Shown here piece after piece: positions 23,757 through 43,280 of a stretch of 64,000 bases of DNA. Every line of letters begins with the position of its first letter. Position 1 is the first letter of the stretch. The position numbers were made by a program, and so were the translations under genes. Source of the stretch: Desulfosoma sp. (GTDB lineage: Bacteria > Desulfobacterota > Syntrophobacteria > Syntrophobacterales > DSM-9756); assembly GCA_037481835.1 (NCBI GenBank), contig JBBFKW010000017.1, positions 32,001 through 96,000 on the forward strand, read 5' to 3'. The notes below the pieces were generated by a model. It was not told where the DNA came from and ran no database searches. It saw only the letters and a program-made list of their open reading frames with translations.

Positions 23757-23775
23757 AGGGGCCTCCTTGGAAGAT

Positions 23776-24921: not shown

Positions 24922-25022
24922 TGCCCCCTCGACCTGCCCAGCGCCCCCCCTTATGCCTTACCGGACGCTCGTTCGTCAACGCACGAATCCTCAACCGAAG
25001 CTCCCATCATCCCTTCGCGATC

Positions 25023-25859
25023 CTAGACCACCTCGGCCAGGGCGTGAGAAAGGACGATGGAGCGTTCCGTGGCCGCTTCGATGGCGTATCGGCCGTCTTC
25101 CAAGAGCCAACCGCGCGTGGTGATGGTATCCCCCGGATAGACCACGTCGGCGAACCGCACCTGAAACGCCTTGAAGCGCGACACGTCCCCGCCGCACGCC
25201 CCTTGGAGGATGGCTCTGACGGCAAACCCGAAGGTGCACAGCCCGTGAAGGATCGGTCTCGGAAATCCCGCAGCTTCCGCCGCCTTGGGATCGATGTGGA
25301 GTGGGTTCACATCGCCGGAGAGGCGATAGAGGGCCGCCTGGTCTTGGGTCGTCTTGTAAGACACCTCAAAATCGGGACTCCTGTCCTTGGGCACCGGAAC
25401 CGCTTCCGCCTTGGGACCAGGGTCGCCCCCCCATCCCCCGAGACCCCGGCAGAAAAGGCTCATGCGCGTTGCACACACGAGAGCGCCTTTTTCGTCCGTG
25501 CTTTCCGTTTCCAAGACCACCAGAGCCGCTTTTTTCTTGTCGTAAATCCCGGCGACTTTCACCGTGCTCAAAAGCTTTCCCCGGGAAGGCAGGGGCGCGT
25601 AAAGCCGGACGGCTTCCTCCCCGTGCAGCACCGTTTTGAGATCGATCTTGAGTTTTTCCAGGACCTCGAAAAACGGGTGAAACACGGGGATCACCGCATA
25701 GGACGGGCAAACCTTGAGGCCTCCTTCCGCACGTTCGTAGACGTAATCCAGATCCGAAGCGCCGAAACCAATTCCAAGATGATACAGGATAATGTCGCGC
25801 CAATGCATCCGGTGTTCGAAAGGCCCAATGGTAAGGCCCACTTGGTTGACGTCGATCAT
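25023..25859 (-). CDS. double-hotdog (R)-specific enoyl-CoA hydratase (MaoC/MFE-2 type)
   Basis: ILYHLGIG, LHGEE, hydratase-2 motif YRLSGDVNPLHIDP...GFPRPILHGLCTFG. Confidence 0.92.
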   Translation of the reverse strand: MIDVNQVGLTIGPFEHRMHWRDIILYHLGIGFGASDLDYVYERAEGGLKVCPSYAVIPVFHPFFEVLEKLKIDLKTVLHGEEAVRLYAPLPSRGKLLSTVKVAGIYDKKKAALVVLETESTDEKGALVCATRMSLFCRGLGGWGGDPGPKAEAVPVPKDRSPDFEVSYKTTQDQAALYRLSGDVNPLHIDPKAAEAAGFPRPILHGLCTFGFAVRAILQGACGGDVSRFKAFQVRFADVVYPGDTITTRGWLLEDGRYAIEAATERSIVLSHALAEVV

Positions 25860-26080
25860 ATCACTCCCCCTTTCTCTCTTTGACTGAAGAGGCTCGCAGG
25901 CCGCGGAGCCCCCCCTCCCGTAGCGACCTGCCATGGCCGCGCCCTCGCGACACCCCCCAGCCTTCTTTTTACGAAGGTCGCGGCCCGAATCTGGGAGGGC
26001 AGGACTTTCATGCTTCGCTGTCTCGCCCCGCGCGATCCGGGTTATGGCCAGCGCCCGATCCCCGCCTCGCGACCTTCCTC

Positions 26081-26905
26081 CTACCATCCTCCGGTCACCT
26101 TGATCACCTGCCCGGAGACGTAATCCGATAGGGGCGACGCCAAAAACAGCATGACCCGGGCGGCTTCTTCGGGCGTTCCCGGCCGTCCCAGGGGGATCAT
26201 CATGCGAAAGGCCTCCAGTTGGTTCTTGGGCACACCGATGGCGATCTTCTTACCGTCCTTTTCCAAAACCGTGTCTTCCGCCTTCGGTTGGGTGAGCCGC
26301 GTCTCGATCCAGCCGTAGGCCACGGCGTTCACGTTCACGTTCAAACGGCCCCATTCCTTGGCCAAGGTCTTCGTAAAGCCCAGGATGCCCGATTTGGCCG
26401 TCGAGTAATTGGCCTGGCCGGCGTTGCCGTCCGTTCCGGCCACAGAACTCACGTTAATGATCTTGCGCATGACGACGCGGCCTTGTTCCGCTTCCTTCTT
26501 GGCGTTTTCGCGGATGTAGGGTGCCGCCGCCCGAATGATTCGAAAGGGCGCCGTACAGTGCACCTTGAGCATGGCCTCCCATTGTTCGTCGGTCATCTTG
26601 TGCACCACGCCGTCCCAGGTGTAGCCGGCGTTGTTGACGATGATGTGGATGTCCGGCCCGAAGGCGTCGACGGCCGCTTGGACGAACTTTTCCGCAAAGC
26701 CGTCGGCGGTCACATCCCCCACCACGGCAACGGCCTCCCCGCCTCGATCCCTAATGTTCTGCACCACTTCGTGCACCGGGCCGGGATCCAGATCGCTCAA
26801 AACCAGCTTGGCCCCTTCCGCCGAAAAAAGCAACGCCGCCGCGCGGCCGATCCCCCGGCCCGCTCCCGTGATCAGACACACCCTTCCTTCCAGCATCTTC
26901 TCCAT
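26081..26905 (-). CDS. SDR oxidoreductase (3-hydroxyacyl-CoA dehydrogenase/FabG-like)
   Basis: TGAGRGIG, NNAG, SSVAG, NYSTAK. Confidence 0.92.
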   Translation of the reverse strand: MEKMLEGRVCLITGAGRGIGRAAALLFSAEGAKLVLSDLDPGPVHEVVQNIRDRGGEAVAVVGDVTADGFAEKFVQAAVDAFGPDIHIIVNNAGYTWDGVVHKMTDEQWEAMLKVHCTAPFRIIRAAAPYIRENAKKEAEQGRVVMRKIINVSSVAGTDGNAGQANYSTAKSGILGFTKTLAKEWGRLNVNVNAVAYGWIETRLTQPKAEDTVLEKDGKKIAIGVPKNQLEAFRMMIPLGRPGTPEEAARVMLFLASPLSDYVSGQVIKVTGGW

Positions 26906-27030
26906 GGATTCTCCCTCCTTGTTCGACCCCAATGATGCTCCTTTCACTCCAAGAAGCATTCATGTGGGGTCGGCTCATCGAAAAATGACGCAGATTTTTG
27001 TTCGCGGTCAGAGCCTCCCTGCATAGCCGC

Positions 27031-28686
27031 TTAAGCTCCGATCTTTTTTCGGATGTCCCGGCGCAGTTCTTTTTTGAGAATCTTCCCCACGGGGTTTCGC
27101 GGGATGGCCTCCACCACCTCCAACCGTTCGGGCAATTTGTACGTCGCCACCCCCTGTTCCCTCATGTAGGCCGTGATGCTTTCCATCGTGACCGTCTGGC
27201 CGGGTTTGGGCACCACATAAACGCAGGTGCGCTCCCCCAGGTTTTCGTCGGGCATGCCCACCGCCGCCACATCCTGGACGGCGGGATGCGCCAAAAGGAC
27301 GTTTTCCACTTCCTGGGCGCTGATGTTGTAGCCGCCTCGGATGATGATGTCCTTGGCCCGTTCGAAAAACTTCAGGTATCGGTCTCCGGCGATCTGGAAA
27401 AGATCCCCCGTGCGGAAGTAGCCTTCCGCATCGAAAGCCTGGGCGTTCAGATCCGGCCTTTTGAAGTAACCGGGGATCACGTTGGGGCCGCGGTAGAGCA
27501 GCTCGCCCACGGCGCCGTCTTCGCTCAGTTCCGACCCGTCGGGACCCACCACCTTTGTTTGGACGAACCGGGCCATGGGGGTGGACCATTCCACGCCGGG
27601 AGCCCCGTATCGGGGCAGGTGGTCGACGCGGATCTTCATGTCCGGCACTTCCCGAACCCCGGAAACCAAGGCGGTGCCTTCGTTTTGGCCCCAGATGTTC
27701 CCAATGTCCACGTTCCAGCGCCTCTTGAATTCTTCCATGGACCACAGGGACGGCGGCGCGGACCCCACAGTGATGACACGGACGGAACTGAGATCCACCC
27801 CTTGGGCGGCCGGATGCTTGAGGATGAGGTTCACCACGGCGGGCACGAGCAAGGTGTACTGGATCTGTTCCTGCACCATCTGCTTCAAGAGCAGCTGGGG
27901 ATCGAAGGGATGGTGCAGGATCACCGTGCCGCCGAAGCGCAGCCACGGCACGTAAACCGTCCCGACGGAGGCCATATTGACCAAAGGGCCGGCCGTGAGC
28001 ATGACATCGCCGGGCTCCATGCCGCTGGCCAGAGCCACGGCCGCCTGGCATCGCCAGTTGTTGTGGCTCAAGGGACAGCCTTTGGGCTGGGCTTCGGTCC
28101 CCGACGTCCAACAGAGCGTGAAGATGTCGTCCGCATCCACGCGGATTGCGCTGAGAGCGGGATCCGGCTTTTCTTGGATCATGCGCCGCACATCTTCGTA
28201 GGTGTAGATTTTCTTTAAGGTCGGCACCTTCCGGGCGACCTCTTCGGCCATGGCCCGATGGCCGAAGCCGTGAAACGTGTTCACCGTGATCATGGCCTTG
28301 GCCTGGGTCAATTCGGCGACGTAGGTGATTTCCTTGGCGCGCCATTGCATGGGCATGGGGGAAATCACGGCGCCGGCCCGAGCGACGGCGAGGTAGAGCA
28401 TGGCCAGTTCCCAGCAATTGGGAAGCTGCACGAGCACGATGTCGTCCTTGTCGATGCCTTCGGCTCGCAATGCTGAAGCCGTCGCTTCCACAGCCCTGTC
28501 GAAATCGGCGTAGCGCACCCGTTCCGGAGCCGTCCCGACGAGGGCTTCCTTATTGAGGGGGTCCACGACGGCGGTGCGTTCCGGTGTCGTGCGGGCGTGC
28601 TGCTTGAAGTCGTCCAACAGCGCGCGGGCGCCCCAGCATCCCTTGGTGGTGTATTCCAAGATCCGTTCGGGAGAAGCGAGAATCAT
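27031..28686 (-). CDS. acyl-CoA synthetase (class I adenylate-forming enzyme)
   Basis: WTSGTEAQPKG, WGQNEG, FRTGD, RAKDIIIRGG, PRNPVGK. Confidence 0.92.
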   Translation of the reverse strand: MILASPERILEYTTKGCWGARALLDDFKQHARTTPERTAVVDPLNKEALVGTAPERVRYADFDRAVEATASALRAEGIDKDDIVLVQLPNCWELAMLYLAVARAGAVISPMPMQWRAKEITYVAELTQAKAMITVNTFHGFGHRAMAEEVARKVPTLKKIYTYEDVRRMIQEKPDPALSAIRVDADDIFTLCWTSGTEAQPKGCPLSHNNWRCQAAVALASGMEPGDVMLTAGPLVNMASVGTVYVPWLRFGGTVILHHPFDPQLLLKQMVQEQIQYTLLVPAVVNLILKHPAAQGVDLSSVRVITVGSAPPSLWSMEEFKRRWNVDIGNIWGQNEGTALVSGVREVPDMKIRVDHLPRYGAPGVEWSTPMARFVQTKVVGPDGSELSEDGAVGELLYRGPNVIPGYFKRPDLNAQAFDAEGYFRTGDLFQIAGDRYLKFFERAKDIIIRGGYNISAQEVENVLLAHPAVQDVAAVGMPDENLGERTCVYVVPKPGQTVTMESITAYMREQGVATYKLPERLEVVEAIPRNPVGKILKKELRRDIRKKIGA

Positions 28687-28711
28687 GGTGTCCTCCTTGG
28701 CGAGGAAACGT

Positions 28712-29908
28712 TTAGAGGCCGAAAATGCCCACACTGCACACGCTGAAGGATGGGATCCCGCCCAGGTTGTGGGTGAGGCCCAGCTTGGGGTCCTGAATCT
28801 GACGCGGCCCGGCCCGATGGAGCAGCTGGGTGTAGACTTCGTAAATCATGCGGATGCCGGACGCCCCGATGGGATGGCCGAAGCACTTCAGGCCTCCGTC
28901 GGACTGGCACGGTATCTTGCCTTCCAAATTGAAGAACCCATCGTTGATGTCCCGGATGGCCCGGCCTCGCTCGGAAATCTGGAGATCCTCGTAGGTGACG
29001 AGTTCCGTGATGGAAAAGCAATCGTGCACCTCCAGAACGCTCAGCTCGTCCCGCGGCCGCGTGATGCCGGCTTCCGCATAGGCCCGCTTGGCCGCTTCCG
29101 TCGTGGTCTTGAGATAGGTCCCGTCCCAGCGGGTCGTCACCATTTCCTCACCCGATGTGGCGGCGATCTGCAGCGCCTTGACGAACACCGGAGTCTTTCC
29201 CAAACCTCGGGCGACGTCCGGCGTCGTCACAATGGCCGCCGCCGCTCCGTCGCTCACGCCGCAACAGTCGAAAAGCCCCAAGGGCCAGGCGATGATGGGG
29301 GCTTTGAGGACCTGTTCCGGGGTGATTTCTTTTCGCAAGTGCGCCTTGGGGTTCATGGCCCCGCAGCGGTGGCTCTTGGCGGAAATCTTGGCCAAGGCCA
29401 TCTTGCCTTCTTCTGGGGAAATGCCGTACTTGGCAAAATAGCGCGTGGCCATGAGGGCGAAGCCGCCCGGGGCCGTAAAATTGGGCAGGATGAACCGATT
29501 GAGGGTTCCCATGGCCGTGTCGAAACCCGGAAGACCGCCGTAGCCCGTGTCCTTGAGCTTTTCCACGCCGAGGGCCAAGGCGATGCGGCAGGCGCCCGAA
29601 GCCACCGCATAGCAGGCGCCGCGAAAGGCTTCCGTTCCCGTGGCGCAGAAATTTTCCACCCGCGTCACCGGAATGTTGGGAAGTTTCAATGCCTGGGCCA
29701 AAGGAATGGCACTCTTGCCGATGTTGACCTCATCGAAACACGTGCCCAACCAGGCCGCATCGATCTCTTTCTTTTCAATCCCCGCATCCTGCAAGGCTTC
29801 CTGGAAGGCCTCCACCATGAGGTCTTCGGCCCCGTCGTTCCACCGCTCCCCGAACCGGGTGCACCCCATCCCGATGATCGCCACCTTGTCCTTGATTCCC
29901 GTCGCCAT
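28712..29908 (-). CDS. SCP2-type thiolase (acetyl-CoA acetyltransferase)
   Basis: RVENFCATG, SDGAAA, EVHDCF, GHPIGASG. Confidence 0.92.
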   Translation of the reverse strand: MATGIKDKVAIIGMGCTRFGERWNDGAEDLMVEAFQEALQDAGIEKKEIDAAWLGTCFDEVNIGKSAIPLAQALKLPNIPVTRVENFCATGTEAFRGACYAVASGACRIALALGVEKLKDTGYGGLPGFDTAMGTLNRFILPNFTAPGGFALMATRYFAKYGISPEEGKMALAKISAKSHRCGAMNPKAHLRKEITPEQVLKAPIIAWPLGLFDCCGVSDGAAAAIVTTPDVARGLGKTPVFVKALQIAATSGEEMVTTRWDGTYLKTTTEAAKRAYAEAGITRPRDELSVLEVHDCFSITELVTYEDLQISERGRAIRDINDGFFNLEGKIPCQSDGGLKCFGHPIGASGIRMIYEVYTQLLHRAGPRQIQDPKLGLTHNLGGIPSFSVCSVGIFGL

Positions 29909-29920
29909 GGGCTCCCCTCC

Positions 29921-31381
29921 TTATCGTCCCGCCGATTCCACGGGCACGGCCTTCCAGAAATACGTGTGCACGCCCCGCTGGGGGTCGTGGTATTTTCGCC
30001 GAAGATGCAGCTCCACAGGCTGATCCACCCGAATGGACTCCAACGCGCAGTCGGTGAAATCCAGCATCATTCGCCCGCCCCCTTGGAAGTCCACGATGCC
30101 GTAGATCTGAGGCGGATCCAGCGAAAAGGCCAGGTTGTCTCCCGTGTAGCTGAAGATCCGAGCCGGCTTGTCCGAAAAGAGGTAGGGTTCCGTCTCGTCC
30201 ACGGCTTGGCATTCGCCGACGGCACAGATCCTTTGCGGCGGAAACTGCGGGGTGCCGCACCGCCGGCACCGAGTGCCCTCCAACCCCAAGATGGCCCGCC
30301 GATACCGCCATTGGACCGATAGAGGCGTTTCCGCTTGAAATTCCCCCCGAAGGCCTGTTTCCACGGGAATGAGCTCCCGGAAGGCCGCCGCTTTTTCATA
30401 GGGGGCGAGCATGGCTTTGCGCGCAGCAAGGGCATCGAAAGTCCAGGCGGGCTTAAAAGAAGGTGCAGCCTCGGTGACGCGGAAATGGAGGACGTCCACG
30501 CCGCTTCCGTACCCCACAACGAGGATGTGGGACCCGGGGGAAGCGGATTCCAGCGCCCTGCACAGCATGAGGAGCGGGTGAGCGGCGCCGGTGTCGCCCA
30601 CCTGGGCCGCCAAGGGATCGGCGATCCGATCCGGGGCCAAGCCCAGCCTGGCACCGATGACGGCATGCTCCCGTGGGTACGGGCAGGGGTATATCACCGT
30701 GGAAAAGGCGTCCAGGGGCATCTGGGCTTGAGCGAGATAGTTCTGGACGGCCTTGGGGATGAGGGAGAGATACCCTTCGTCACGCATCCAGCGCTCTTCC
30801 CAAGACCGAGGGAGCTTCTTCTCGTTTTCCCGAATGGGGCCCGGAAAATCGGCACTGAGGGAGTAGGACCCGACGAGCTCGGCAAGAATCCCGTCGCGGC
30901 CCATGAGGAGCGCCGCGCCGCCGTCGCCGTACAGGAGTTCTTCGGCGCTTCCCATTTTGGCCCGTCGGGCATCGGAGGCCACGGCCAGGGCCTGGGTCGA
31001 AGCGCCGGAAGACACCTGAGCGGCCGCCGCCAGGACGGCCGATGTCCCCGCCCGCGTCGATCCCGTGACATCCACGGCCAGAGCGCCTTCGGGAAGACTG
31101 AGCGCCTCCCGGAGAATCGCCGCATTCTGGCGTTCCGCGTAGGGAAAGTTGGACGATCCGGCGAAAAGGGCCGTGCAGGCGGACTCGACCCGGAAACGAC
31201 AGGCATTTCGACCCGCCGCCGCGGCCAGGGTGATGGCGTCTTCGTCCGCCCCGGCCACGGCCTTTTCCCCGCCGGCAAGTCCCCATGCGGCGGGGTTGAT
31301 CCAGGCCATGGCTTTCGCCACCATTTTCCTTTCCAGCCGATATCGCGGCAGATACGCACCATAGGCAACAATGCCGACCAT
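29921..31381 (-). CDS. HMG-CoA-synthase-like protein fused to DUF35 (Zn ribbon + OB fold)
   Basis: GIVAYGAYLP, DEDAITLA, VGDTGAAH, YGSG; C-terminal CRRC...PPQRICAVGEC + OB fold ending YFWKA. Confidence 0.88.
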   Translation of the reverse strand: MVGIVAYGAYLPRYRLERKMVAKAMAWINPAAWGLAGGEKAVAGADEDAITLAAAAGRNACRFRVESACTALFAGSSNFPYAERQNAAILREALSLPEGALAVDVTGSTRAGTSAVLAAAAQVSSGASTQALAVASDARRAKMGSAEELLYGDGGAALLMGRDGILAELVGSYSLSADFPGPIRENEKKLPRSWEERWMRDEGYLSLIPKAVQNYLAQAQMPLDAFSTVIYPCPYPREHAVIGARLGLAPDRIADPLAAQVGDTGAAHPLLMLCRALESASPGSHILVVGYGSGVDVLHFRVTEAAPSFKPAWTFDALAARKAMLAPYEKAAAFRELIPVETGLRGEFQAETPLSVQWRYRRAILGLEGTRCRRCGTPQFPPQRICAVGECQAVDETEPYLFSDKPARIFSYTGDNLAFSLDPPQIYGIVDFQGGGRMMLDFTDCALESIRVDQPVELHLRRKYHDPQRGVHTYFWKAVPVESAGR

Positions 31382-31427
31382 GGAAACCTCCTTGCTTTCA
31401 GGGGAATGGAACCGAGGGACACGCAAC

Positions 31428-31476
31428 CTAACCGAGCGCTCGTTCAGTTCCTGACAGAGCCGACGGCTCATGTCAA
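31428..31476 (-). promoter_or_regulatory. promoter (-35 TTGACA) and palindromic operator of the acyl-CoA operon
   Basis: minus-strand TTGACA at 31476-31471; CTAACCGAGCGCTCGTTCAG palindrome at 31428-31447; -10 box weak. Confidence 0.6.
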
Positions 31477-31582
31477 GCAAAAGATGAAGCTTGGGCGTGA
31501 GGTCGCTCTCGAGTTAAACTGGTTTCGTTGCCTTTGTATATGAAAGTCGCCTTCGAAATCTGAAAGGGCAGGACTTTCCTGG

Positions 31583-32549: not shown

Positions 32550-33172
32550 CCCGCCCCAAGGAAAAGTATCGCCTCGTCGTTCGATTCTATGAAATCCACG
32601 TCGAAGAAAAAGACGGCACGGCGGTAAGGCTTTCCTGGGAGCTCAAGGATGAGCAGAGGCTTCAGAAGCGATTTTCCGGTCGTTACCGGATTCGATCTTC
32701 ACGAACGGATCTTTCGGACAAGGAGCTTTGGGATCTCTACAACATGCTGACCCAGCTGGAGGACTCCTTCCGCAGCCTCAAGCACGAGCTTTCCTTGCGC
32801 CCGGTCTATCATCGTGTGTCACGGCGGATCCAAGGGCACCTTTTCATCACCGTCCTCGCCTACCACCTGCTGTGCGTCATCCAGAGAAAGCTTCACCAAC
32901 GCGGAATTCGCCACCACTGGACCACGTTGCGAACGCACCTGAGCGGGCAGGTCCGCGTGACGACCACCACGGTCAACGACAAGGGTCAGGTCATCCATAT
33001 CCGACACACTTCGGAGCCGGAGCCGGTTCACGTGGGTATTTACAAGGCCCTCGAACTGCCGGTTCGGCCGTTGAGAAGGCTCACGAAAATCGAGTGAAAA
33101 ATCTGTAGTGTAGAATTTGAAATCACATCTCAGCAAAATCAAAATCTTACGCACAAAAGTGACAAACTTGGG
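32550..33172 (+). mobile_element. IS1634-family remnant: 3' part of transposase and right end
   Basis: open frame KEKYRLVVRFYEI...LWDLYNMLTQLEDSFRSLKHELSLRPVYHR...GHLFITVLAYHLL, stop at 33097; AT-rich tail ending AACTTGGG at 33172; no N-terminus. Confidence 0.85.
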
Positions 33173-33443: not shown

Positions 33444-36400
33444 ATGTCCTTTGATCCCCGAGAGTGGGTGCGGATGGACTGGGAAGCCGCACCCATCTAC
33501 GTTCGACCGGATCCCCCCTGCTGGTTCGTCCCCAACGGGATGGGAGACCGCCTTCTTCAAGAAGCCTTGACAAAGCCAGACATTCCCCTGACCCAAGACG
33601 CGGCCCGCTTCTGGCGGCGCCTTCCCGAGTCGTCCCCGTCCCGCTATGCGGGTCGAGCGGAGATACTCAAACCGCATCGTCTGAAGGAATTCTGGATCCA
33701 TCTCACCGACCGGTGCAACCTGGCGTGCCGGCATTGTCTTTTCGCCTCCTCGCCCTCCCGGGCCCGGGAGCTGCCGGCGGACCGGGTGCTGGAAGCCGCC
33801 CGCCAGGCGCATGAACTGGGATGCCGCCTTTTTGCCCTCACCGGCGGCGAGCCCTTCGTTCACCCCCACATCCACCGCATCCTCCAAGGCCTGCTGGCCC
33901 TTCCCGACGCCCACGTGGCGGTGCTCACCAACGGCCTGGCCGCCCGGTCCGTCCTGGAAAAGCTCCCGTGGGATCCCGAACGGATCCATCTGCAGGTGAG
34001 TCTGGACGGGCTGGAAGAAAGCCACGACGCCCTGCGCGGCAAGGGAACGTTTGCGAAAACCTTGAGGGAACTCCGGGCGCTCTCCCGCATGGGAATTCCC
34101 TTCACCCTTTCCATGTGCCCCACCCGCTCCAACTTATCCGATGTGCCGCACATGGCGGATGCGGCACGGGACGCGGGCGCGTCCAACATCCACTTCATGT
34201 GGTACTTCGTGCGGGGGCGTGCCGTTTCAAAGGAATTCGTGCCTCCGGATGAACTCTTGGACGCGGTGCGCTGCGCCGTGGAGCGCGCCGAAGATTCGGG
34301 TGTCTCGGTGGACAACGTTCAGGCGCTGGCTACCCAGGTCTTTTCCCCCCCGGGAACCCGCTACGACGGCGGCGGCGCGGCCTGGGAATCCCTGGCCCTG
34401 GGACCCGACGGAAACCTCTATCCGTCCGCGGCCCTGGTGGACGTCCCCGAACTGGCCATGCCTTGGCCCCGGGGCCTGGAAAGGGCCTGGAAGGACAGCC
34501 CCGTCTTCGAGCGCATCCGGCAGGAAACGGCGGCGCGGCTCGATCATCCGCTTCGCTTCCTCCTGGGAGGGGGCGATCCCGATCACAGCTACCTGGCGGC
34601 AGGCCGGTTCGTGGGAGCCGATCCCTACTTGGAGCTCCATCAGAAACTGGCCCTCTGGCTCATCGCCCGTCGTGCCCCCCGGTCCGTCGTCACCAGCCGG
34701 CCGGCCCTTCGCCTCAAGATGGGGGACATCCTTCAGAGCTGCGGAAGCGGAGAGCACGGCGTCTCCTTCGTCCATTCCAATTGCCTGCTCGCTCTTGCCT
34801 CCCCGTCGAGCCTTTCCGTCGTTCGGGACTTCTATTCCGACGCCGCGGCCCGTCCCAAGTTGGACATCCTCAATCCGGTGACCTATCCCGAGGCATGGAC
34901 GGCTCACATCCCTGAAGAATACCGGTTTCGCGGCTACGGGTGCGGCAATCCCGTGGTGGATGCGGCTCTTCAAGAGGGCGAGACCGTGGTGGACCTGGGC
35001 TGCGGAAGCGGTGTGGAATGCTTCATGGCGGCCAAGCAGGTGGGACCGGACGGTCGCGTGATCGGGATCGACATGCTGGAAGCCATGTTGAAACGCGCCC
35101 GGGCGGGAGCCCGCGCCACGGCCGAGCGGCTGGGCTACGACAACATGACCTTCCTCCATTCCCTCCTGGAAAGCCTTCCCCTGGACGATCACACCGCGGA
35201 CGTGGTGCTTTCCAACTGCGTGCTCAACCTTTCCAGCGACAAGCGCCGCGCCTTCCGGGAGATCCACCGCATCCTCCGCCCCGGCGGCCGCCTGGCGGTT
35301 TCCGACGTGGTCTGCGACACCGACCCGGATCCGGCCATCCGAAACGATCCCGTGCTCCACGGGGAATGCATCGGCGGCGCGCTCACCCAGCGGGACCTGG
35401 TGGGGATCCTGGAAGAATCCGGCTTCCGGGCGGTTCGCTTTCTCAAGAGGTTTCCCTACCGCACGGTTCGCGGCCACCGGTTTTACAGCCTCACCTTCGA
35501 AGCTCGGAAAGAAACCGACGCAGACGCCGTCCCTGTCCTCTATCCGGGACCCTTTGCGGCCGTCCAAACCTTCGGGGGAACCGTGCTCACTCCCGGACCG
35601 GTGCACCGCATCCCGCAATGGGAAGCCCAGATCCTGGAAGACCAGCTCTGGATCCTGGACGATGGGGGAGCCGTGACGAACCGGGAACGCGAAAGCTGCT
35701 GCGCCTGCGCCGCGCCGGAAGACCAGCCGGCCGCGGATCCCGCTTCGGCCCCTTGGCACGTTCCGGGCCCAGCCGGCCGAAAGACCGGCCAAAGCATTCC
35801 GCTTCGGCGCCGTTCCGGCTGCATGGTCTGCGGCGAGCCGCTTTCCTACGAATCTTCGGAAACCCTGGAAACGTGCATCTACTGCGAAGGCCGCTTCCTT
35901 TCGTCGGCCCGCTGCCTCAAGGGCCATTTCGTCTGCGACGCGTGCCATTCCCGGGACGCTCTCGCGGTGATCGAGCACCTCTGCCTTTCTTCCACGGAAA
36001 CCGACCTCATCGCCCTCATGGACAAAATCCGCCGCCATCCGGCCATGCCGGTCCACGGGCCCGAACACCACGCCCTGGTGCCCGCCGTGGTGGTAACCGC
36101 GTACCGCAATGCCGGCGGACCGGTGGACGAGGAGGCCATCCGTTCCGCCCTTCGCCGCGGTTCCCGCGTTCCCGGAGGATCCTGCGGGTTCATGGGCTGC
36201 TGCGGAGCGGCCGTGGGTGTGGGGATCGCCTTTTCGATCCTCCTGGAAGCCAATCCGGTCAAGGGACCGGAACGGCGCCTGGCCCAGCAGGCGACCCAGC
36301 AGGCCCTGGCGGACATCGCCTCCCTGGACGCCGCCCGATGTTGCCAGAGGGATTCCTGGATCGCTCTCAAGAAGGCGGCCGAACTTTCCGCCCAAATCCT

Positions 36401-36530
36401 GGATCGCCCCCTCCACGCCAACCACACCCTCAAGTGCCGACAGCAGGCGAAAAACCGCGAATGCTCGGGCGCCCGATGCCCGGTGCTCAGAAGCCTCAAC
36501 GGACGCGCCGGCCAGGGGCTTTCGGCATGA
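33444..36530 (+). CDS. radical SAM / ArsM-like SAM methyltransferase / DUF5714-like fusion protein
   Basis: [79 protein letters not shown]. Confidence 0.9.
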
Positions 36531-36537
36531 GAGGAGG

Positions 36538-36760
36538 GATGAGTGATGGGGGATGGGTGATGAGTGAGAGGGAGCGCCGCGGGGTGCGATTTTCTTTGAG
36601 TGGCGCCATGCGGTTGTGACATTGCGGGCCATCTCCGTTGCGGTTTGCGCCGCTCCCACAAGGGACAGAACCGAAGGTTGTTTTCACCACATAAGATGTC
36701 GCGCTCCCTCGTTCTTGCTCACGATACTTTCTTTGCGCCTTTGCGTCTTTGCGCGAGACC
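36538..36760. repeat. short tandem repeats and a REP-like palindrome
   Basis: five heptamers (gatgagt-like) 36538-36572; GTGG-type REP-like cggtttgcgccgctcccaca 36641-36660; three octamers ctttgcgy 36731-36754. Confidence 0.65.
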
Positions 36761-36816: not shown

Positions 36817-38367
36817 ATGAGAGACTCCGCACAAAGGTCTACGGTGTTGGAGCCATGGGATGAGGCGAACCGGGAGCTGGCTTCTCTCATCCGCCCCGCG
36901 CACTGGAGGAACCCCGCGCCCGCGCCCCGCTACAACCTGGTGGTCATCGGGGCGGGGACCGCGGGGCTGGTGACCGCGGCCGGGGCCGCGGGACTGGGAG
37001 CCAAGGTGGCCCTGGTGGAAAGGCACCTTCTCGGCGGAGACTGCCTCAATGTGGGGTGCGTGCCTTCCAAGGCGCTTCTGGCGGCCTCCCGCGCCGCCGC
37101 CGCGGTCCGGGATGCTCACCGCTTCGGGATTCATGTGCCGGAAGGGGTCCGGGTGGATTTTCCAAGGGTCATGGAGCGCATGCGCCGCCTGCGGGCATCC
37201 ATCGCCCCCAACGATTCCGCCCGGCGCCTCACGGAACTGGGCGTTGACGTCTTTTTCGGAAACGCCCGCTTCATGGATTCGGAAACGGTGGATGTGGACG
37301 GAACACGGCTCCGGTTTCAGAAGGCCGTGATCGCCACCGGAGCCCGGGCCGCCGCTCCGGCCATCCCCGGCCTGGACCGGGTGCCCTACCTCACCAACGA
37401 GACGCTCTTTTCGCTCACCGAACTTCCCCGGCGGTTCGGCATCATCGGAGCCGGCCCCATCGGCTGCGAGATGTCCCAAGCCTTCGCCCGCTTCGGGTCC
37501 AAGGTTTTTCTGGTCGAAGCCATGCACGGGATTCTTCCCCGGGAGGACCCGGACGCATCCGCCATCGTCTGGAAGGCCATGGAGACCGACGGTGTGGAAC
37601 TCCTTTGCTGCGGGCAGGACCTGGTTCTGGAGCCGGGCCAAGACGGCTCCGCGGTCATGCAGCTCCATTCCCACGGGCGCACGACCCGCGTGGAGGTGGA
37701 CCGGGTTCTGGTGGCGGTGGGGAGGGCTCCCAATCTGGAAGATTTGGACCTGGATCGCGTGGGGGTGGCCGCCACGCCCAAAGGCGTCGTCGTGGACGAT
37801 CACCTTCGGACCACCAACCCCAGGATCTATGCGGCCGGCGACGTCTGTTCCCCCTATCAGTTCACCCACGCGGCCGACTTCATGGCGCGCCTCGTCATCC
37901 AAAACGCCCTCTTTTGGGGCCGGGCCAAGGCGAGCGCCCTCACCATCCCCTGGTGCACCTACACGGACCCGGAAATCGCCCATGTGGGCCTCTATGAAAG
38001 GGACGCCCGGGCCCGCGGCTGGGAGCTTCAGACCATCACCCTGCCCCTTTCCCATGTGGACCGGGCCGTCCTGGAAGGCCGGGCCGAAGGGTTGGTTCGG
38101 GTTCATGTTCGAAAGGGAACCGACCGGATCGTGGGGGCCACCATCGTGGCACCCAACGCCGGAGATATGATCGGGGAGCTGAGTCTGGCCATGACCCACC
38201 GGATCGGCCTTCGGGGCCTGGCCGCCGCCATCCACCCCTACCCCACCGTGGGAGAAGCCCTGCGCAAGGTGGGCGATCTTTACAACCGATCCCGGCTCAC
38301 GCCGCGGATGAAAAAGTTGGTCGCCCAAATCCTGGCCTGGCGTCGAGGAAAGCGGCACTGGAGCTGA
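36817..38367 (+). CDS. MerA/LpdA-like pyridine nucleotide-disulfide oxidoreductase
   Basis: VIGAGTAG, GGDCLNVGCVPSK, GAGPIGCE, YAAGD, IHPYPT. Confidence 0.92.
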   Translation: MRDSAQRSTVLEPWDEANRELASLIRPAHWRNPAPAPRYNLVVIGAGTAGLVTAAGAAGLGAKVALVERHLLGGDCLNVGCVPSKALLAASRAAAAVRDAHRFGIHVPEGVRVDFPRVMERMRRLRASIAPNDSARRLTELGVDVFFGNARFMDSETVDVDGTRLRFQKAVIATGARAAAPAIPGLDRVPYLTNETLFSLTELPRRFGIIGAGPIGCEMSQAFARFGSKVFLVEAMHGILPREDPDASAIVWKAMETDGVELLCCGQDLVLEPGQDGSAVMQLHSHGRTTRVEVDRVLVAVGRAPNLEDLDLDRVGVAATPKGVVVDDHLRTTNPRIYAAGDVCSPYQFTHAADFMARLVIQNALFWGRAKASALTIPWCTYTDPEIAHVGLYERDARARGWELQTITLPLSHVDRAVLEGRAEGLVRVHVRKGTDRIVGATIVAPNAGDMIGELSLAMTHRIGLRGLAAAIHPYPTVGEALRKVGDLYNRSRLTPRMKKLVAQILAWRRGKRHWS

Positions 38368-38391: not shown

Positions 38392-39102
38392 TCAGCTCCG
38401 AGACGAAGGTTCCACACTGACCAGGAGCGTCCGCCCCTGGACGGCGATCCGACCGCTTTCGCGGAGCTTTCCCATGGCCCGCGTGATGCTCACCCGGTGT
38501 GCCCCCGCGAGAAAACTTAACTCCTCGTGTGTGAGAGGAAAATGGATGGCGTAGCCCGTGGTCGTGGGCTTTCCGTGCTCCTTGGCCACGGCAACCAAAA
38601 TCCTGTAGAGACGGTCTTCCAGGTTCGAAAGGGACAGACTCTCCGCCCGATCCGTCAGGAGATGGATCCTCTCACTCAAGTTTCGAATGACTTGAAGCCC
38701 GATGTTGGGGCGCTCACGCACCAAGGCCTCGAAGCGCTCCCGGGTAAACCCGCAGATGAGGGTGCGCTCCATGCACACGGCGCTCACCGGGTAGTCCGTT
38801 TCTTCGGAAAGCATCTGTTCGCCGAGAAAATCGCCCGGTTTGCGCATGTCGAGCGTGATTTCGTGGCCGTCTTCCTGGACCTTGGAGAGCTTCACCCGCC
38901 CGGCCTTGATCAAAAACATGCGGTGCGCCGGGTCTCCCTGGTGGAAAATCATCTCCCGCGCTTGGTAAATCCGACGCTCCGCCGCCGAAACCAGCGCCAA
39001 GGTATCCTCCGGATCCAGGTTCCTGAAGAGCCACAGGTTCCCCAGGCACTCCGGACTGACGGCCACCTCCTTGCCGAGCCATTCTTCGCACAGGCATCCC
39101 AT
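38392..39102 (-). CDS. Crp/Fnr family regulator (HcpR-like, N-terminal Cys motif)
   Basis: MGCLCE...ECLGNLWLF; cNMP domain (IFHQGD, GDFLGE); HTH LTHEELSFLAGAHRVSITR. Confidence 0.9.
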   Translation of the reverse strand: MGCLCEEWLGKEVAVSPECLGNLWLFRNLDPEDTLALVSAAERRIYQAREMIFHQGDPAHRMFLIKAGRVKLSKVQEDGHEITLDMRKPGDFLGEQMLSEETDYPVSAVCMERTLICGFTRERFEALVRERPNIGLQVIRNLSERIHLLTDRAESLSLSNLEDRLYRILVAVAKEHGKPTTTGYAIHFPLTHEELSFLAGAHRVSITRAMGKLRESGRIAVQGRTLLVSVEPSSRS

Positions 39103-39122
39103 GGCGGGCTCTCCAGAACGGC

Positions 39123-39677
39123 TTATCCGATGAATACCTGAAGACGGGCGCAAAAGTCCCGGACATCCACCGGTTCAATCACCAGCGGCACCTGAACCAG
39201 ATCGAAAAAGTGGAGGATTTCTTCGTCGCTGAGGGGATTGAGTCCGGCATCCAGGACGAGAATTCGGTCGTAGCGCCCCAACTGGATTCTGGCGTCCACC
39301 TGGTCCCAGCCCATGACGGCCATGATTTGCGGCCAGACACGCACCCAGGCCGGCGTCATGAGCATGGTGCGATCCTTTTCTATCTCTCGGGCTTGCGGAC
39401 CGGCCAACCATTCCAGGCAGTTGCGAAAAGGGGCGGTTTCAAAGCCGCCCTCCTCGGCAATCCTTCGAAGCTCGGGATGACACCCCGCTCCGAAGACGAG
39501 GTATCGCGGCCCACTCTCTGGGGAGAGATCGTCGGACTTGCAGTGAAGGTCCTTTTCCAGTCGGTCCAGATCCGCATGGAGCGCCGCATCAACCCAGAGG
39601 ATCTTAACATCCGTTCTTTCCCCGATGCAGGCCTGCAATTCATCTTCGAAAATCCGACACGCAATGATGGTCTTCAC
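39123..39677 (-). CDS. DUF1638-like protein
   Basis: IIACRIFEDE, AALH, FGAGCHP, NCLEWL, MTPAW motifs; GTG start. Confidence 0.78.
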   Translation of the reverse strand: MKTIIACRIFEDELQACIGERTDVKILWVDAALHADLDRLEKDLHCKSDDLSPESGPRYLVFGAGCHPELRRIAEEGGFETAPFRNCLEWLAGPQAREIEKDRTMLMTPAWVRVWPQIMAVMGWDQVDARIQLGRYDRILVLDAGLNPLSDEEILHFFDLVQVPLVIEPVDVRDFCARLQVFIG

Positions 39678-39685
39678 GGCCCGCC

Positions 39686-40342
39686 TCACATCATCCGCTG
39701 GGATCGCAACCGCTCCCGAAGCTCCCCGCCCACTTCCCCGGCCCGACGCCACACCTCTTCTTGATCCTCAACAGAATAGAACTTGTCCGGCGTCACGCGC
39801 GCACCTTCCCCGAAGATCCACGGGACGGCGCTCATGGGACAGGTTTCTCCGTATCCGCATACCATGCATTCGGGGTTGCCGACAATCTTCAAGGTCTCCA
39901 GCACCATCATACCTTCCAAACGCAGGGCATGGATCATCTGCGCAGAAGCGTCCTCCAGGCCGGGTGCTCCACGCCCGATGCCCGTGGTCACGATCACGGC
40001 CAATTTGCCTCTGTTCAGGCCGTTTTGATGCCTCAAGGAAAAGAGCCTCTCCAGGAAGGCCTTCGTAAAGCCGTCCACCGCCCCGTAAGGGGCATAGCCT
40101 CCCACGACCAGGGCGGACGCCTTTCGGACCTTTTCCGCCAGCGGCGGGAAATCGTCGGAGACTTTGCAAACGTTGTCCTTCTTGCAACCAAGGCAAGCGA
40201 TACAGGGTCGAACGTTGAGACGACTCAGTTTGATGAACTCGTAGGCCAATCCGCTGGACTCCAAGACTTTCAACACCAAGCGGTCCGTGTTGCTGTTCTT
40301 GATCGGGCTTCCTGAAATTCCAACAATCGGGACATGGGTCAT
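39686..40342 (-). CDS. iron-sulfur flavoprotein / NADPH-dependent FMN reductase family
   Basis: GISGSP..NSNT, PCIACLGCKKDNVC, KAFLER; extra C-terminal CMVCGYGETC. Confidence 0.88.
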   Translation of the reverse strand: MTHVPIVGISGSPIKNSNTDRLVLKVLESSGLAYEFIKLSRLNVRPCIACLGCKKDNVCKVSDDFPPLAEKVRKASALVVGGYAPYGAVDGFTKAFLERLFSLRHQNGLNRGKLAVIVTTGIGRGAPGLEDASAQMIHALRLEGMMVLETLKIVGNPECMVCGYGETCPMSAVPWIFGEGARVTPDKFYSVEDQEEVWRRAGEVGGELRERLRSQRMM

Positions 40343-40413
40343 ATCGCTTTCTCCCGCACGTTCTTTTACTGAGTACGTCGAGGGGGGCGCCGCGGCGAGC
40401 CCCCCGGAACCGG

Positions 40414-40548
40414 TCACTTCTTTTCGTCCTTTTCCTTGTTCTTCTCTTCAGCCAGCACCACTTTCCTGCCGCATAGGTCGCATCGACCGTCTTCCGTGAT
40501 GCACGGCTGACGCGGCGCCTCACCTCCGCAGATTCCGCACTTCGGCAT
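40414..40548 (-). CDS. 44-aa Cys-rich small protein (not in ORF track)
   Basis: manual translation MPKCGICGGEAPRQPCITEDGRCDLCGRKVVLAEEKNKEKDEKK*; AAAGGAGGTG RBS just upstream; co-oriented with the cluster. Confidence 0.8.
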   Translation of the reverse strand: MPKCGICGGEAPRQPCITEDGRCDLCGRKVVLAEEKNKEKDEKK

Positions 40549-40709
40549 GGCAAATCACCTCCTTTCTCACGTTCGTTCCGGCATGCCGTGATATAGGTTC
40601 TAGACGGAAGACACGAGCTTTTCCGTAGCAAGGGCTACACACAATGCATTTGGGAGGAATCCTTAAAGGAGGGCTTGGATGATTCTTCTCTAGTCGGGGC
40701 TATGACGAA

Positions 40710-41122: not shown

Positions 41123-41683
41123 CTATCCCAAGCCGAAGTAATGACGACCTAATTCATGCAAAAACTCGTGGAACTCTTCGTGTTTTCCAGCCCCAACGCG
41201 TTCATTTTCGATGCGTTCGAATGCCTCCAGGAGCCTGCCGTCTTCGGCTGCATCCAGGTTCGCCTCCGCCATCACAAAAAGGACGGTGTTTTCCTTCGCT
41301 ATATGCTGTGTCAAAAGCTCCACATAGCTGCCCATGCGGCTCTTGATGATGTCTGCTGCGGATTTGTCATCCGATGGATAGTTTTTTACGGCGTCTCGGA
41401 GTTCGGAAACGATCCTGCGCCCTTCTTCGTGCTCGGCAAGCAAGACCCCTATCGGGCCTCCATCCCTTGGAATGCCGCTTGCCTCCAAGGCCGGGAACAG
41501 AAATTCCTCTTCTTTTCCATGGTGGCACTTATCCACAAATATCGACAGAAACTCCATGATGCCGTCAAGGTGCCGGACATCCACCTGTTCACCGTGAGAG
41601 AGTTTTTTTGATACCGCCTGCAGGACCTGCAGCATCACCATTATCCCTTCGTGTTCTTTCCTGAGGTCTTCGGTGGCTTTCAT
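41123..41683 (-). CDS. hemerythrin/HHE cation-binding domain protein
   Basis: LRKEH, DKCHHGKEEEFLFP, LAEHEEGR, QHIAKENTVLF; AAAGGAGG RBS. Confidence 0.92.
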   Translation of the reverse strand: MKATEDLRKEHEGIMVMLQVLQAVSKKLSHGEQVDVRHLDGIMEFLSIFVDKCHHGKEEEFLFPALEASGIPRDGGPIGVLLAEHEEGRRIVSELRDAVKNYPSDDKSAADIIKSRMGSYVELLTQHIAKENTVLFVMAEANLDAAEDGRLLEAFERIENERVGAGKHEEFHEFLHELGRHYFGLG

Positions 41684-41757
41684 GCGTGCCTCCTTTCGTT
41701 CAAGGATTCTTGACTCTCAGAGTCCGGCCTTTTCGGTCGACCGACATGAGGCCCTCC

Positions 41758-41919
41758 TTACCATTTTCGAAGATGCACACTGGGCGCCGCATCTTTCAGC
41801 CAATAATCCGCCTGCAATCGGTCCTTGCTCATAGCCCGAGGCCATACGCGATCCACCAGGATCCGCGTTCCGTCGTCGTCGCCCAAAGGCTCAAAGACAC
41901 GTTTCGTACGTATGTTCAA
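41758..41919 (-). pseudogene. truncated DUF488 (YeaO-like) gene
   Basis: [27 protein letters not shown]...[14 protein letters not shown] then TAA; C-terminal half absent. Confidence 0.8.
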
Positions 41920-42002
41920 CGGCACCACCCTTCGCCGTTTCAGCACGGGAAGGAAATCACAGGGGCTCTGGGGGGCATGAAAGCCGCTTCCAGATGCTTG
42001 CC

Positions 42003-43181
42003 TCACATCAAACCGTGTTCCCTGTGCCTTTGGGCTATTGCCTCGGCAAGGCGGGTGAGGGCCGCGTAATCGGGCTCTTTCGGCAGCCCCTTGCACAGAA
42101 CCGGGTCCAGCACCTCCACTTTCAGGTTGGGAATCATTCCCGCCAGGGTTTCCACCGTCTTTCCGCCCCAGCCGTAGGATCCCACAATGGAGAGGAACCG
42201 CGCCTTGGGCCGCAGGGCGTTGGCCAAGAACACCGCGTACACGGCCAACGGGTGGGGACCGGCCAGCACCGTGGGGGTGCCCACCACGATCGTGGCGCCG
42301 TCCACCAGGGCCTCGGCCAGCTTGCCGATGTCCGTCACCGCAAGATTAAAGAGATCCACACGAATCCCGTACCCCACCAGGGCATCCGTCAGGTGATCGA
42401 CCATTTTTCGGGTGCTGCCGTGCATGGACACGAAAGGAAAAACCACAGCGTTGTGGGGCGTCGGAGAAAGCCAATCTCGATGGGCTTCCAGGATCCAGGC
42501 CGGGTCCCCGTAAACCTGGCCGTGGCTCGGGGCGATCATTCCGATATCGTAACCGGCGACCTTCTCCACATTCTTGGCGATCACGGCGCGAAACGGCATC
42601 ATGATCTCGGCGAAGTACCGTTTGGCCGCTTCGTAGACCCGGCCCCGGTCGGTGACGAAAAGATCGGTGGTGGCGATATGGGCGCCGAAAAAGTCGCAGC
42701 TGAAGAGAATTCGATCCTCCGCCAGGTAGCTCACCGTGGTCTCGGGCCAGTGCACCCAGGGGGTGTGCAGAAACTTCAGGGTTTTGTCCCCTAGGGACAG
42801 CGTCTCCCCGTCTTCCACGGTGACCAGAACGTCCTCGGAAAGGTTCAGCAAATCCATGAGCAGGCCCTTGGCCTTTGGGGTGGCAACCACCTTGGCCTCG
42901 GGAAAGCGGGCCAGCACCGCCGGGATGGTCCCGGAATGGTCCTGCTCCGCATGGTGCGAAACGATGAAATCGACCTTGGAGACATCCTCCAGTTGTGCCA
43001 GAAGTTGGTCGGACTTGGAGGGATCGACGGTATCCAGAAGAGCCGTCTTCTCGCTTCCTTCCACCAGGTAGGCATTGTAGGTAGTGCCGTCCGGCAGCGG
43101 AATCAGCGAATCGAACAGGCGACTGTCCCAGTCCACCGCGCCCATCCAGGAAACCCCTTCGGTGATTTTTCTCCTGCGCAT
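42003..43181 (-). CDS. fprA: A-type flavodiiron protein (NO/O2 reductase)
   Basis: [36 protein letters not shown], flavodoxin domain SMHGST, GSYGWGG. Confidence 0.95.
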
Positions 43182-43220
43182 GCGTCTTTCTCCGTTTTGC
43201 AGGGTGTGAGGCCACGGCTC

Positions 43221-43280
43221 CAACCATGTGAATGTGCATTCACATGGTTGAAACATAGACATCCGCGCCGGCCGGAGCAA
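43221..43280 (-). promoter_or_regulatory. fprA sigma-70 promoter with a perfect 14-2-14 operator
   Basis: minus strand TTGCTC-17bp-TATGTT (43280-43252); CAACCATGTGAATG-tg-CATTCACATGGTTG at 43221-43250. Confidence 0.75.

Follow-up and report, generated by a model that had tools for sequence, protein, structure and literature searches.

A radical SAM, ArsM-like methyltransferase and DUF5714 fusion protein from Desulfosoma and other anaerobes: a candidate for organoarsenical biosynthesis

The stretch of DNA analysed here (the window) comprises 64,000 nucleotides from Desulfosoma sp. (GenBank assembly GCA_037481835.1, contig JBBFKW010000017.1, positions 32,001 to 96,000 of the forward strand). 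On its plus strand lies a gene predicted to encode a single chain in which a radical S-adenosylmethionine (SAM) domain, a methyltransferase resembling the arsenite methyltransferase ArsM and a Cys-rich domain of family DUF5714 follow one another. An earlier note on this DNA, made from the letters alone, had proposed that such a chain methylates As(III) and forms a further arsenic-carbon bond. To our knowledge, very few enzymes that build organoarsenicals have been described, namely ArsM, ArsS and ArsL. The gene and its parts are as follows.

33444..36530 (+): whole open reading frame P0001, 1028 amino acids, radical SAM, ArsM-like methyltransferase and DUF5714
33444..33680 (+): N-terminal domain, residues 1-79; W8, W27, F28 and P30 invariant
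33681..34343 (+): radical SAM core, residues 80-300; CX3CX2C at residues 91-98 (nucleotides 33714-33737); GGEP-type T133-G135-E136-P137 invariant
34344..34847 (+): SPASM-like extension without auxiliary-cluster cysteines, residues 301-468; S328, D378, D380, H381, C433 and C447 invariant; no conserved Cys between C225 and C433
34851..35687 (+): ArsM-like SAM methyltransferase with ArsM C-terminal subdomain, residues 470-748; motif I DLGCGSG; C500 at nucleotides 34941-34943, C592 at 35217-35219, C642 at 35367-35369
35688..35798 (+): linker, predicted to be disordered (predicted local distance difference test, pLDDT, about 31), residues 749-785; CxC, with C752-C755 at nucleotides 35697-35708
35799..36491 (+): DUF5714 module, residues 786-1016; zinc-ribbon-like hairpin (C793, C796, C811, C814; C824, H828, C831, C834, H835), then helical bundle (H871/H876, C914/C920, C966/C967, C998/C1007/C1012)

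Translation of 33444-36530 runs through 1028 amino acids without an internal stop. No open reading frame (ORF) at the site is longer, and the GC content at its third codon positions (0.78) is like that of the coding ORFs of the window, whose overall GC content is 60.7%. A search of a 5.8-billion-protein collection gave 1105 matches among 8000 scored candidates; since the best 120 of these relatives, which were listed, all measure 943-1109 amino acids and share its three Pfam domains, the ORF is not a product of chance. Pfam places Radical_SAM at residues 86-239 (E 2e-22; PF04055, 80.5 bits against a cut-off of 29.5), Methyltransf_31 at residues 510-658 (E 2e-30, above the gathering score) and DUF5714 (PF18978) at residues 843-1013 (E 4e-62; 209 bits against a cut-off of 26.2; profile positions 1-171 of 173). 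The 13-residue radical SAM motif supplies C91, C95 and C98. YGCGNP, SNCVLNL and GECIGGA supply C500, C592 and C642, the latter two separated by a gap of 50 residues, and DLGCGSG is also present. SCCAC in the linker comprises C752, C753 and C755, while in the tail HGPEHH spans residues 871-876, a 15-residue motif contains C914, C919 and C920, and RCCQR contains C966 and C967. The three-domain single ORF and every motif described by the earlier note were thereby recovered in place through translation, Pfam and motif mapping. The full-length AlphaFold model has a mean pLDDT of 83.4 and a predicted template modelling score (pTM) of 0.69.

Conservation was assessed in an alignment of 46 of the 120 listed full-length homologues, which are 50-93% identical to the query. 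Invariant in all 46 are C91, C95 and C98 together with T133-G135-E136-P137, C225, C433 and C447, and, in the methyltransferase, D517, L518, G519, G521 and G523 of motif I. The three cysteines that had been likened to the As(III) ligands of known arsenite methyltransferases, C500, C592 and C642, are likewise kept in 46 of 46. In the linker, C755 is universal and C753 occurs in 44 of the homologues; in the tail, C793, C796, C811, C814, C824, H828, C831, C834, H835, H865, H876, C914, C920, C966, C967, C998, C1007 and C1012 never vary.

Identity to the query descends from 93% in Desulfacinum infernum DSM 9756 to about 50% in relatives from Desulfosoma, Desulfuromonas, Syntrophotalea, Maridesulfovibrio and metagenome-assembled genomes (MAGs) of Planctomycetota; the names attached to these proteins at their source are generic ('DUF5714 domain-containing protein', 'methyltransferase type 11'). 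Among contigs representing one genome per species, 559 stretches encode a relative, and the 80 loci that were kept, mostly with full-length genes, derive from Thermodesulfobacteriota, Chlorobium, Prosthecochloris, Pirellulaceae, Planctomycetota, Acidobacteriota, Nitrospiraceae and Anaerolineales. Forms with an in-frame TGA (selenocysteine) codon were sought in the 18 loci that lacked a called target ORF and none was found, one of these loci (L079; L and G numbers are our own handles for loci and genomes) being frameshifted. Within the window's phylum, a sample of 251 genomes contains DUF5714 in 26, of which 18 have it in a frame of at least 900 amino acids, that is, as the fusion; a genome of the same genus (G232) has no DUF5714. 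The window's own genome holds a partial second copy (G000:C10:160531-160935), 53% identical to fusion residues 4-138 and set in a 272-residue frame, which may be a truncated paralogue or a pseudogene.

In the literature outside subscription journals we found no paper describing the union of radical SAM, ArsM and DUF5714, no mention of 'DUF5714', nothing joining arsenosugar, glycosyltransferase and arsM, and, among the matches listed for 'MbdU' (a DUF5714 protein discussed below), only unrelated abbreviations. No curated NCBIfam model claims the fusion protein either. These outcomes are in line with the earlier note, whose author knew of no characterised enzyme of this architecture.

The relationship of the central domain to ArsM and its animal counterpart AS3MT is evident both in sequence and in fold. 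In a sequence search of the PDB, the best matches are ArsM/AS3MT chains, from E 4e-40 (CmArsM, 4fr0) to 1e-29, with the next methyltransferase at 1e-11; YGCG, SNCV and GEC(I/L)GGA align residue-for-residue with CmArsM (4kw7/4fr0), in which the equivalents of C500, C592 and C642 are C72, C174 and C224. Foldseek ranks 1 to 12 are all ArsM/AS3MT (E 2.5e-20 to 1.3e-17) over 288-301 aligned columns that include the C-terminal subdomain, with 28-34% identity over some 290-300 columns. Short bacterial ArsMs of 254-285 amino acids are closer, being 47-54% identical to the fusion domain, and these score 298-358 bits, above the NCBIfam cut-off. The domain thus shares with ArsM/AS3MT (4fr0/4fsd; human AS3MT, 8xt7) the Class I fold, the C-terminal subdomain, the aligned invariant Cys triad and, in the case of the short bacterial ArsMs, around 50% identity, but differs in being an internal domain of a 1028-residue protein, in lacking the N-terminal 40 or so profile positions and in forming a clade of its own. 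This last point comes from a tree of 52 chosen sequences (18 of the 46 fusion domains, 33 search matches and one distant outgroup), in which the fusion domains group together with a Shimodaira-Hasegawa-like approximate likelihood ratio of 100, within an unresolved radiation that also contains canonical, arsinothricin-ArsM-like and two other ArsM-like clades; the rooting is unsafe because the outgroup branch is very long. The NCBIfam model of the arsinothricin ArsM (NF040538) matches residues 580-754 at 162 bits against a cut-off of 500. We conclude that the fusion domains are a distinct subfamily among ArsM-like methyltransferases.

The relatives of the radical SAM portion lie elsewhere. For residues 1-470, the best NCBIfam models are AlbA, Rv1681-type, ScmE/F, NirJ, PqqE, mycofactocin maturase and MoaA, at 66-89 bits and none near its cut-off, and Foldseek matches to this region are SkfB (6efn), CteB (5why), PqqE (6c8v), SuiB and anSME. 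The earlier note had pointed to the separate pairs that ArsS and ArsL form with ArsM. The domain is not ArsS, whose model is matched far below its cut-off (58 bits against 300), no ArsL family occurs among the 25 of 62 NCBIfam matches listed for these residues, and the domain is of the SPASM/twitch-like maturase type. In both sequence and fold, the N-terminal 470 residues come closest to such maturases, with which they also share a recognition-like domain at the N-terminus, but the present protein has no auxiliary Fe-S Cys ligands and is fused to a metalloid methyltransferase. The seven-Cys SPASM motif is absent, the only Cys between C225 and C433 being C277, which is kept in 2 of 46 homologues; the invariant S328, D378, D380 and H381 presumably stand where SPASM domains usually bear Cys. 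The first 60 or so residues are modelled by AlphaFold as three strands plus helices, a topology that, as we read the model, may resemble the peptide-recognition domains (PqqD-like, or recognition elements of ribosomally synthesized and post-translationally modified peptides, RREs) of SPASM maturases. ArsL and ArsM also combine a radical SAM enzyme with an ArsM-type methyltransferase, and the ArsL pair builds an organoarsenical, arsinothricin. ArsL is characterized in a preprint as a noncanonical radical SAM enzyme that transfers a 3-amino-3-carboxypropyl group (bioRxiv 10.1101/2024.02.01.577332). In the fusion, by contrast, the radical SAM motifs are canonical, and no arsQML-like context was seen at the fusion loci.

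Modelled alone, the DUF5714 module (residues 786-1016) folds with high confidence (pLDDT 92, pTM 0.90) into a long β-hairpin and, after it, a bundle of helices. No clear structural relative emerged: Foldseek against the PDB gave nothing at E<=0.001; a wide VIA-align comparison gave at best CyuA (9fsl; Z 6.1, root-mean-square deviation 4.2, 145 residues aligned) and the split-Soret cytochrome 1h21 (Z 5.6), both below the level that is meaningful for helical proteins; and the ESM Atlas, queried with residues 780-1028, had no usable match once PF18978 clusters were left aside. A kinship of the tail with the C_GCAxxG_C_C family, suspected from a GxCGAAxG motif, found no support, as Pfam at E<=10 returned only DUF5714 and noise. 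The MbdU model (NF045648) describes a 'metal-binding double selenoprotein' that shares the DUF5714 module and is matched at 122-127 bits against a cut-off of 600 (positions 4-267 of 468); MbdU contains two selenocysteines, whereas the fused module has Cys instead and its ORF no in-frame TGA.

Free-standing DUF5714 proteins of 220-280 amino acids, for example in [Eubacterium] cellulosolvens, are 47-58% identical to the fusion tail. One adjoins a DGC-domain protein and an ArsR-type regulator (G123), another lies within a corrinoid methyltransferase cluster of RACo, DUF1638, CobW and URO-D genes (G014), and a third is next to TrmO and CopD-like genes (G218). TIGR04283, a glycosyltransferase family considered below, is missing at E<=1e-40 from five of the seven genomes that have only a free-standing DUF5714. 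DUF5714 is thus a general module rich in Cys and His, and is not confined to the pathway proposed below for the fusion. Both free-standing and fused forms are present in G164 and G224, and at one locus a free-standing gene of 230 amino acids (G030:C2:179982-180509; L111:5968-6660, minus strand) lies about 350 bp upstream of the fusion gene. DUF1638 is found beside the free-standing gene of G014 and also in the window, in the block at 38392-40631 described below.

Comparison of the fusion with its partial relatives separates a core from an accessory. A phmmer search with residues 1-470 against 1.84 billion representatives found 123 proteins at E<=1e-30, and the best 150 were scanned with our own hidden Markov models (HMMs) of the domains, built from an alignment: 23 contain radical SAM, methyltransferase and DUF5714; 29 radical SAM and methyltransferase, many of them 740-850 amino acids long; three the methyltransferase before the radical SAM domain; 85 radical SAM only, many being fragments; and 10 have repeated radical SAM matches. 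These counts point to radical SAM plus methyltransferase as the conserved core, with DUF5714 optional. The Cys-rich tail is accordingly an accessory module and no part of the core, being dispensable in many relatives and existing free-standing. A joining of the two core activities has precedent, because in five genomes a genuine ArsS (TIGR04167 above cut-off) shares a single frame of 666-704 amino acids with an ArsM-like domain, in either order:

G162:C4:45582-47450 and G156:C22:70825-72672: ArsS followed by ArsM
G222:C1:37626-39203, and further frames in G131 and G250: ArsM followed by ArsS

Radical SAM and ArsM have thus been fused repeatedly, in two unrelated radical SAM lineages.

The link between the fusion and a pathway comes from two families, TIGR04282 and TIGR04283, each of which bears the NCBIfam name 'arsenosugar biosynthesis glycosyltransferase'. 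One neighbour of the fusion (in locus L028), composed of DUF2064 and a family 2 glycosyltransferase (GT2), passes both models (TIGR04282, 221 bits against a cut-off of 134; TIGR04283, 252 against 182). Homologues of this pair are found in the flanks (within 8 kb) of 12 of the 80 loci and within 2 kb in nine; in L043, L053 and L071 just 0-12 bp separate them from the stop of the fusion. At the level of genomes, with thresholds of our own choosing (E<=1e-40 for TIGR04283 and for ArsS), every one of the 18 fusion genomes from the phylum sample has TIGR04283, versus 122 of 251 overall (Fisher p 1e-6, phylogeny ignored). Fusion and TIGR04283 are within 4 kb of each other on one contig in G070, G080, G133, G144 and G196, and likewise in G194, but there DUF5714 lies in a frame of 379 amino acids. 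Outside the phylum, five of five fusion genomes have TIGR04283 above cut-off, bringing the fusion genomes with the pair to 23 of 23; of 14 control genomes, only Synechococcus elongatus does. Even within the window's family the two go together: G000 (the window's genome), G172 and G202 have the fusion and TIGR04283, the same-genus G232 neither. In the window's genome the pair is a fused TIGR04282-TIGR04283 protein of 444 amino acids on contig 3, whose TIGR04282 half passes at 195 bits.

ArsS, found in 91 of the 251 genomes, keeps the same company, 88 of the 91 also having TIGR04283, and the two radical SAM systems tend to avoid one another. Among the 122 glycosyltransferase-positive genomes, ArsS is present in 2 of 18 with the fusion versus 86 of 104 without it (Fisher p 6e-9, phylogeny again ignored). 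Thirty-four are ArsS-negative, and 16 of these carry the fusion; with the radical SAM domain alone as query, a relative appears in four more (G194, G016, G060 and G099), that of G016 being an 828-residue radical SAM-methyltransferase protein and that of G060 adjoining the glycosyltransferase gene. In the window's genome no ArsS was found, and no ArsM-like gene besides the fusion above 95 bits; in 13 of the 18 fusion genomes the only ArsM-like domain is the fusion's own. ArsS plus ArsM and the fusion thus have in common a radical SAM and an ArsM-type methyltransferase, the same TIGR04282/TIGR04283 partners and a largely complementary distribution, but their radical SAM domains are non-orthologous; ArsS has a Cys-rich C-terminal domain, and the fusion a Cys-free SPASM-like extension plus DUF5714. 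About 30 of the listed ArsS matches contain one in-frame TGA, in agreement with the selenocysteine forms known from the ArsS family, and so do many ArsM-like matches.

Taken together, these observations lead us to propose, with a probability of roughly 0.5, that the fusion is a non-orthologous single-chain counterpart of ArsM plus ArsS in an arsenosugar-type organoarsenical pathway. The ArsM-like domain would bind As(III) through C500, C592 and C642 and methylate it with SAM to dimethyl (or monomethyl) As(III), after which the radical SAM domain would reductively cleave a second SAM on the [4Fe-4S] cluster held by C91, C95 and C98. The resulting 5'-deoxyadenosyl radical would add to the arsenic, giving 5'-deoxy-5'-dimethylarsinoyl-adenosine (DDMAA) or a close analogue. 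An addition of this kind, to trivalent dimethylarsenic (DMAs(III)) with DDMAA as the product, is attributed to ArsS in PMC13598754. The separately encoded TIGR04282/TIGR04283 proteins would process the adduct further, and DUF5714 with the CxC linker may form an accessory Cys/His unit that binds metal(loid), thiol or Fe-S and serves in arsenic hand-over, electron supply or disulfide reduction; a neighbouring MerA-like flavoprotein is a possible source of reductant. The architecture, the conserved residues, the ArsM homology in sequence and fold and the genomic links reported above are observations, whereas substrate and product, like the part played by DUF5714, are inferred. A broader idea, possible but held only tentatively, is that strict anaerobes (reducers of sulfate and sulfur, green sulfur bacteria and anaerobic planctomycetes) produce organoarsenicals linked to adenosyl or sugar groups by way of a convergent radical SAM clade, unrelated to ArsS and covalently coupled to its own ArsM. 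In such a system DUF5714 would be a Cys/His domain of a new kind, a metalloid carrier or an Fe-S domain, which channels arsenic or electrons from one active site to another via a flexible CxC arm.

The local genomic region of the window contains the following further features.

32744..33097 (+): C-terminal fragment of an IS1634-family transposase, just upstream of the fusion, a sign of a mobile or rearranged context
36817..38367 (+): MerA-like FAD/NAD(P)H disulfide oxidoreductase (NCBIfam PRK06370.1-3, 782 bits, above cut-off)
38392..40631 (-): Crp/Fnr regulator, DUF1638 protein and a 287-residue ORF, syntenic in Desulfacinum hydrothermale (L001)
41123..43280 (-): a few kb downstream, hemerythrin-domain protein and protein with an ODP-type metallo-beta-lactamase fold (a di-iron family related to oxygen or NO)
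22605..31480 (-): beta-oxidation-like block of two acyl-CoA dehydrogenases, MaoC hydratase, short-chain dehydrogenase/reductase, AMP-ligase, thiolase-like protein and ChsH2-type OB/zinc-ribbon protein, reminiscent of steroid or branched side-chain degradation clusters

Although its longest ORF opens at 36616, the MerA-like gene matches its family only from residue 73 onwards, and ATG 36817 is the likelier start. As a core partner this family was rejected, since no more than 6 of the 80 loci, spread over three phyla, have a member within 8 kb of the fusion. At one locus the MerA-like oxidoreductase (L048:2813-5113, plus strand; PRK06370.1-3, 833 bits) has a VTT/DedA membrane domain fused to its N-terminus, and separate VTT-domain genes stand directly upstream of the fusion in six Desulfuromonadales or Pelobacter loci. 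Elsewhere the immediate neighbours are mostly lineage-specific housekeeping genes: class II aldolase, VTT/DedA and ComF-like proteins (six each), ribosomal protein L21 (five), TrmO and DUF2064 (four each). Flavin mononucleotide (FMN) reductases among the neighbours are not ArsH-like by NCBIfam.

Several results count against the arsenosugar proposal. The survey of same-architecture loci advocated by the earlier note had a divided outcome: it brought to light the glycosyltransferase pair in 12 of 80 flanks, but no ars-operon family among 124 immediate neighbours from 68 loci, with no arsenate reductase, efflux or ArsR gene adjoining the fusion in any of them, so that an ars-operon setting was rejected; and, of the 69 loci whose target ORF is intact, 10 at most have any one neighbour family in common (BLAST clustering, simple ORF caller). 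The assignment of the methyltransferase to the ArsM type is borne out by sequence, fold and Cys triad, but with reservations. The NCBIfam arsenite methyltransferase model (NF008823) gives 216 bits, short of its cut-off of 263, for which reason ArsM-based marker-gene surveys may miscount such fusions; the PRK11873 match covers profile positions 41-235, leaving out positions 1-40 with the usual N-terminal Cys region, and in the PDB alignment residue 58 of the chain is the first to be aligned. A fourth, N-terminal Cys of ArsM acts in a disulfide cascade; from their position just upstream of the methyltransferase, the invariant C433 and C447 could replace it. The ArsS model TIGR04167 comes only sixteenth for the radical SAM domain (58.4 bits against 300, positions 2-147 of 303, the radical SAM core only), and genuine ArsS proteins in turn score 30-40 bits on an HMM of the fusion's domain. 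In the window's genome, the TIGR04283 half of the pair, at 172 bits, is just below the cut-off of 182. ArsS and the fusion coexist in G080 and G236 (2 of 18 within the phylum) and in three of the five fusion genomes outside it, which makes their exclusion a tendency, not a rule. An ArsM-like gene (E<=1e-35) is present in only 46 of 91 ArsS-positive genomes, versus 52 of 144 with neither ArsS nor fusion, and five genomes with ArsS and the glycosyltransferase have no ArsM-like gene at E<=1e-20; the 46 of 91 leave the native substrate of the cassette in anaerobes uncertain. Finally, 'arsenosugar biosynthesis glycosyltransferase' is an annotation by association, and the co-occurrence statistics, besides ignoring phylogeny and using self-chosen thresholds, draw on many MAGs.

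Some of these same results would suit an enzyme of the TIGR04282/TIGR04283 pathway whose Cys triad holds something other than arsenic: another soft metalloid, a species bound to thiol or selenol, or a sugar- or lipid-linked housekeeping metabolite. The pair in 122 and ArsS in 91 of 251 genomes exceed what would be expected of a niche arsenic trait, only 46 of the 91 ArsS genomes have an ArsM-like gene, and the fusion sits amid housekeeping genes, with an ars operon in none of 68 loci; moreover, fusions of ArsM-like and redox domains are selenoprotein families by their NCBIfam names and in a table of PMC13188914. We nevertheless think a non-arsenic substrate unlikely, as the As(III)-binding cysteines of solved ArsM structures are invariant here with ArsM spacing, true short ArsMs show about 50% identity to the methyltransferase domain, and the only characterised members of the linked families, ArsM and ArsS, act on arsenic. 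Arsenic might alternatively be the substrate with no new arsenic-carbon bond made by the radical SAM domain, the protein carrying out a detoxifying methylation of arsenic (or antimony) with radical SAM and DUF5714 as helpers that provide electrons or reduce the catalytic disulfide under anoxia. Other NCBIfam families do fuse ArsM-like domains to thiol/selenol redox domains (AhpD, DUF2284, UXPK-star), the MerA-like disulfide reductase recurs at 6 of 80 loci, and the window's genome has no other ArsM. Set against this, CX3CX2C and the GGEP-type SAM motif are intact in 46 of 46 homologues, which argues for radical-generating machinery over simple electron transfer; the radical SAM domain belongs to the conserved core and it is DUF5714 that is optional; the immediate neighbours include no gene for ArsR, efflux or arsenate reductase; and the 23 of 23 link to the glycosyltransferase pair would go unexplained. 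Detoxification alone consequently strikes us as distinctly improbable.

The maturase ancestry of the radical SAM domain raises another alternative, that the enzyme modifies a peptide or protein, with RRE-like and SPASM-like parts recognising the peptide, possibly its own CxC linker or DUF5714, and the methyltransferase acting on Cys or another residue. It would account for the closest sequence and fold relatives being the peptide maturases AlbA, SkfB, CteB, PqqE, SuiB and anSME, and for the N-terminal strand-helix domain and the disordered linker with its invariant Cys. It fits poorly with the missing SPASM auxiliary-cluster cysteines, with a methyltransferase that is specifically ArsM-like and has a metalloid-binding triad, and with the existence of forms that have neither linker nor DUF5714; the loci showed neither a conserved small ORF nor a neighbour resembling a precursor. 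We consider this role highly improbable.

Little is understood of how arsenosugars, arsenolipids or methylarsenicals, volatile and soluble, come about in anoxic sediments, paddy soils and hot springs. What distinguishes the fusion from the known radical SAM plus ArsM routes to organoarsenicals is a different radical SAM lineage, an undescribed Cys-rich module and a broad spread in anaerobes. It offers a concrete, clonable candidate for organoarsenical chemistry in these organisms, mostly replacing ArsS where it is present, and would also give a first handle on DUF5714. If the broader idea of a convergent clade is true, the fusion would represent a second, independent invention of enzymatic arsenic-carbon adenosylation and the first function for DUF5714.

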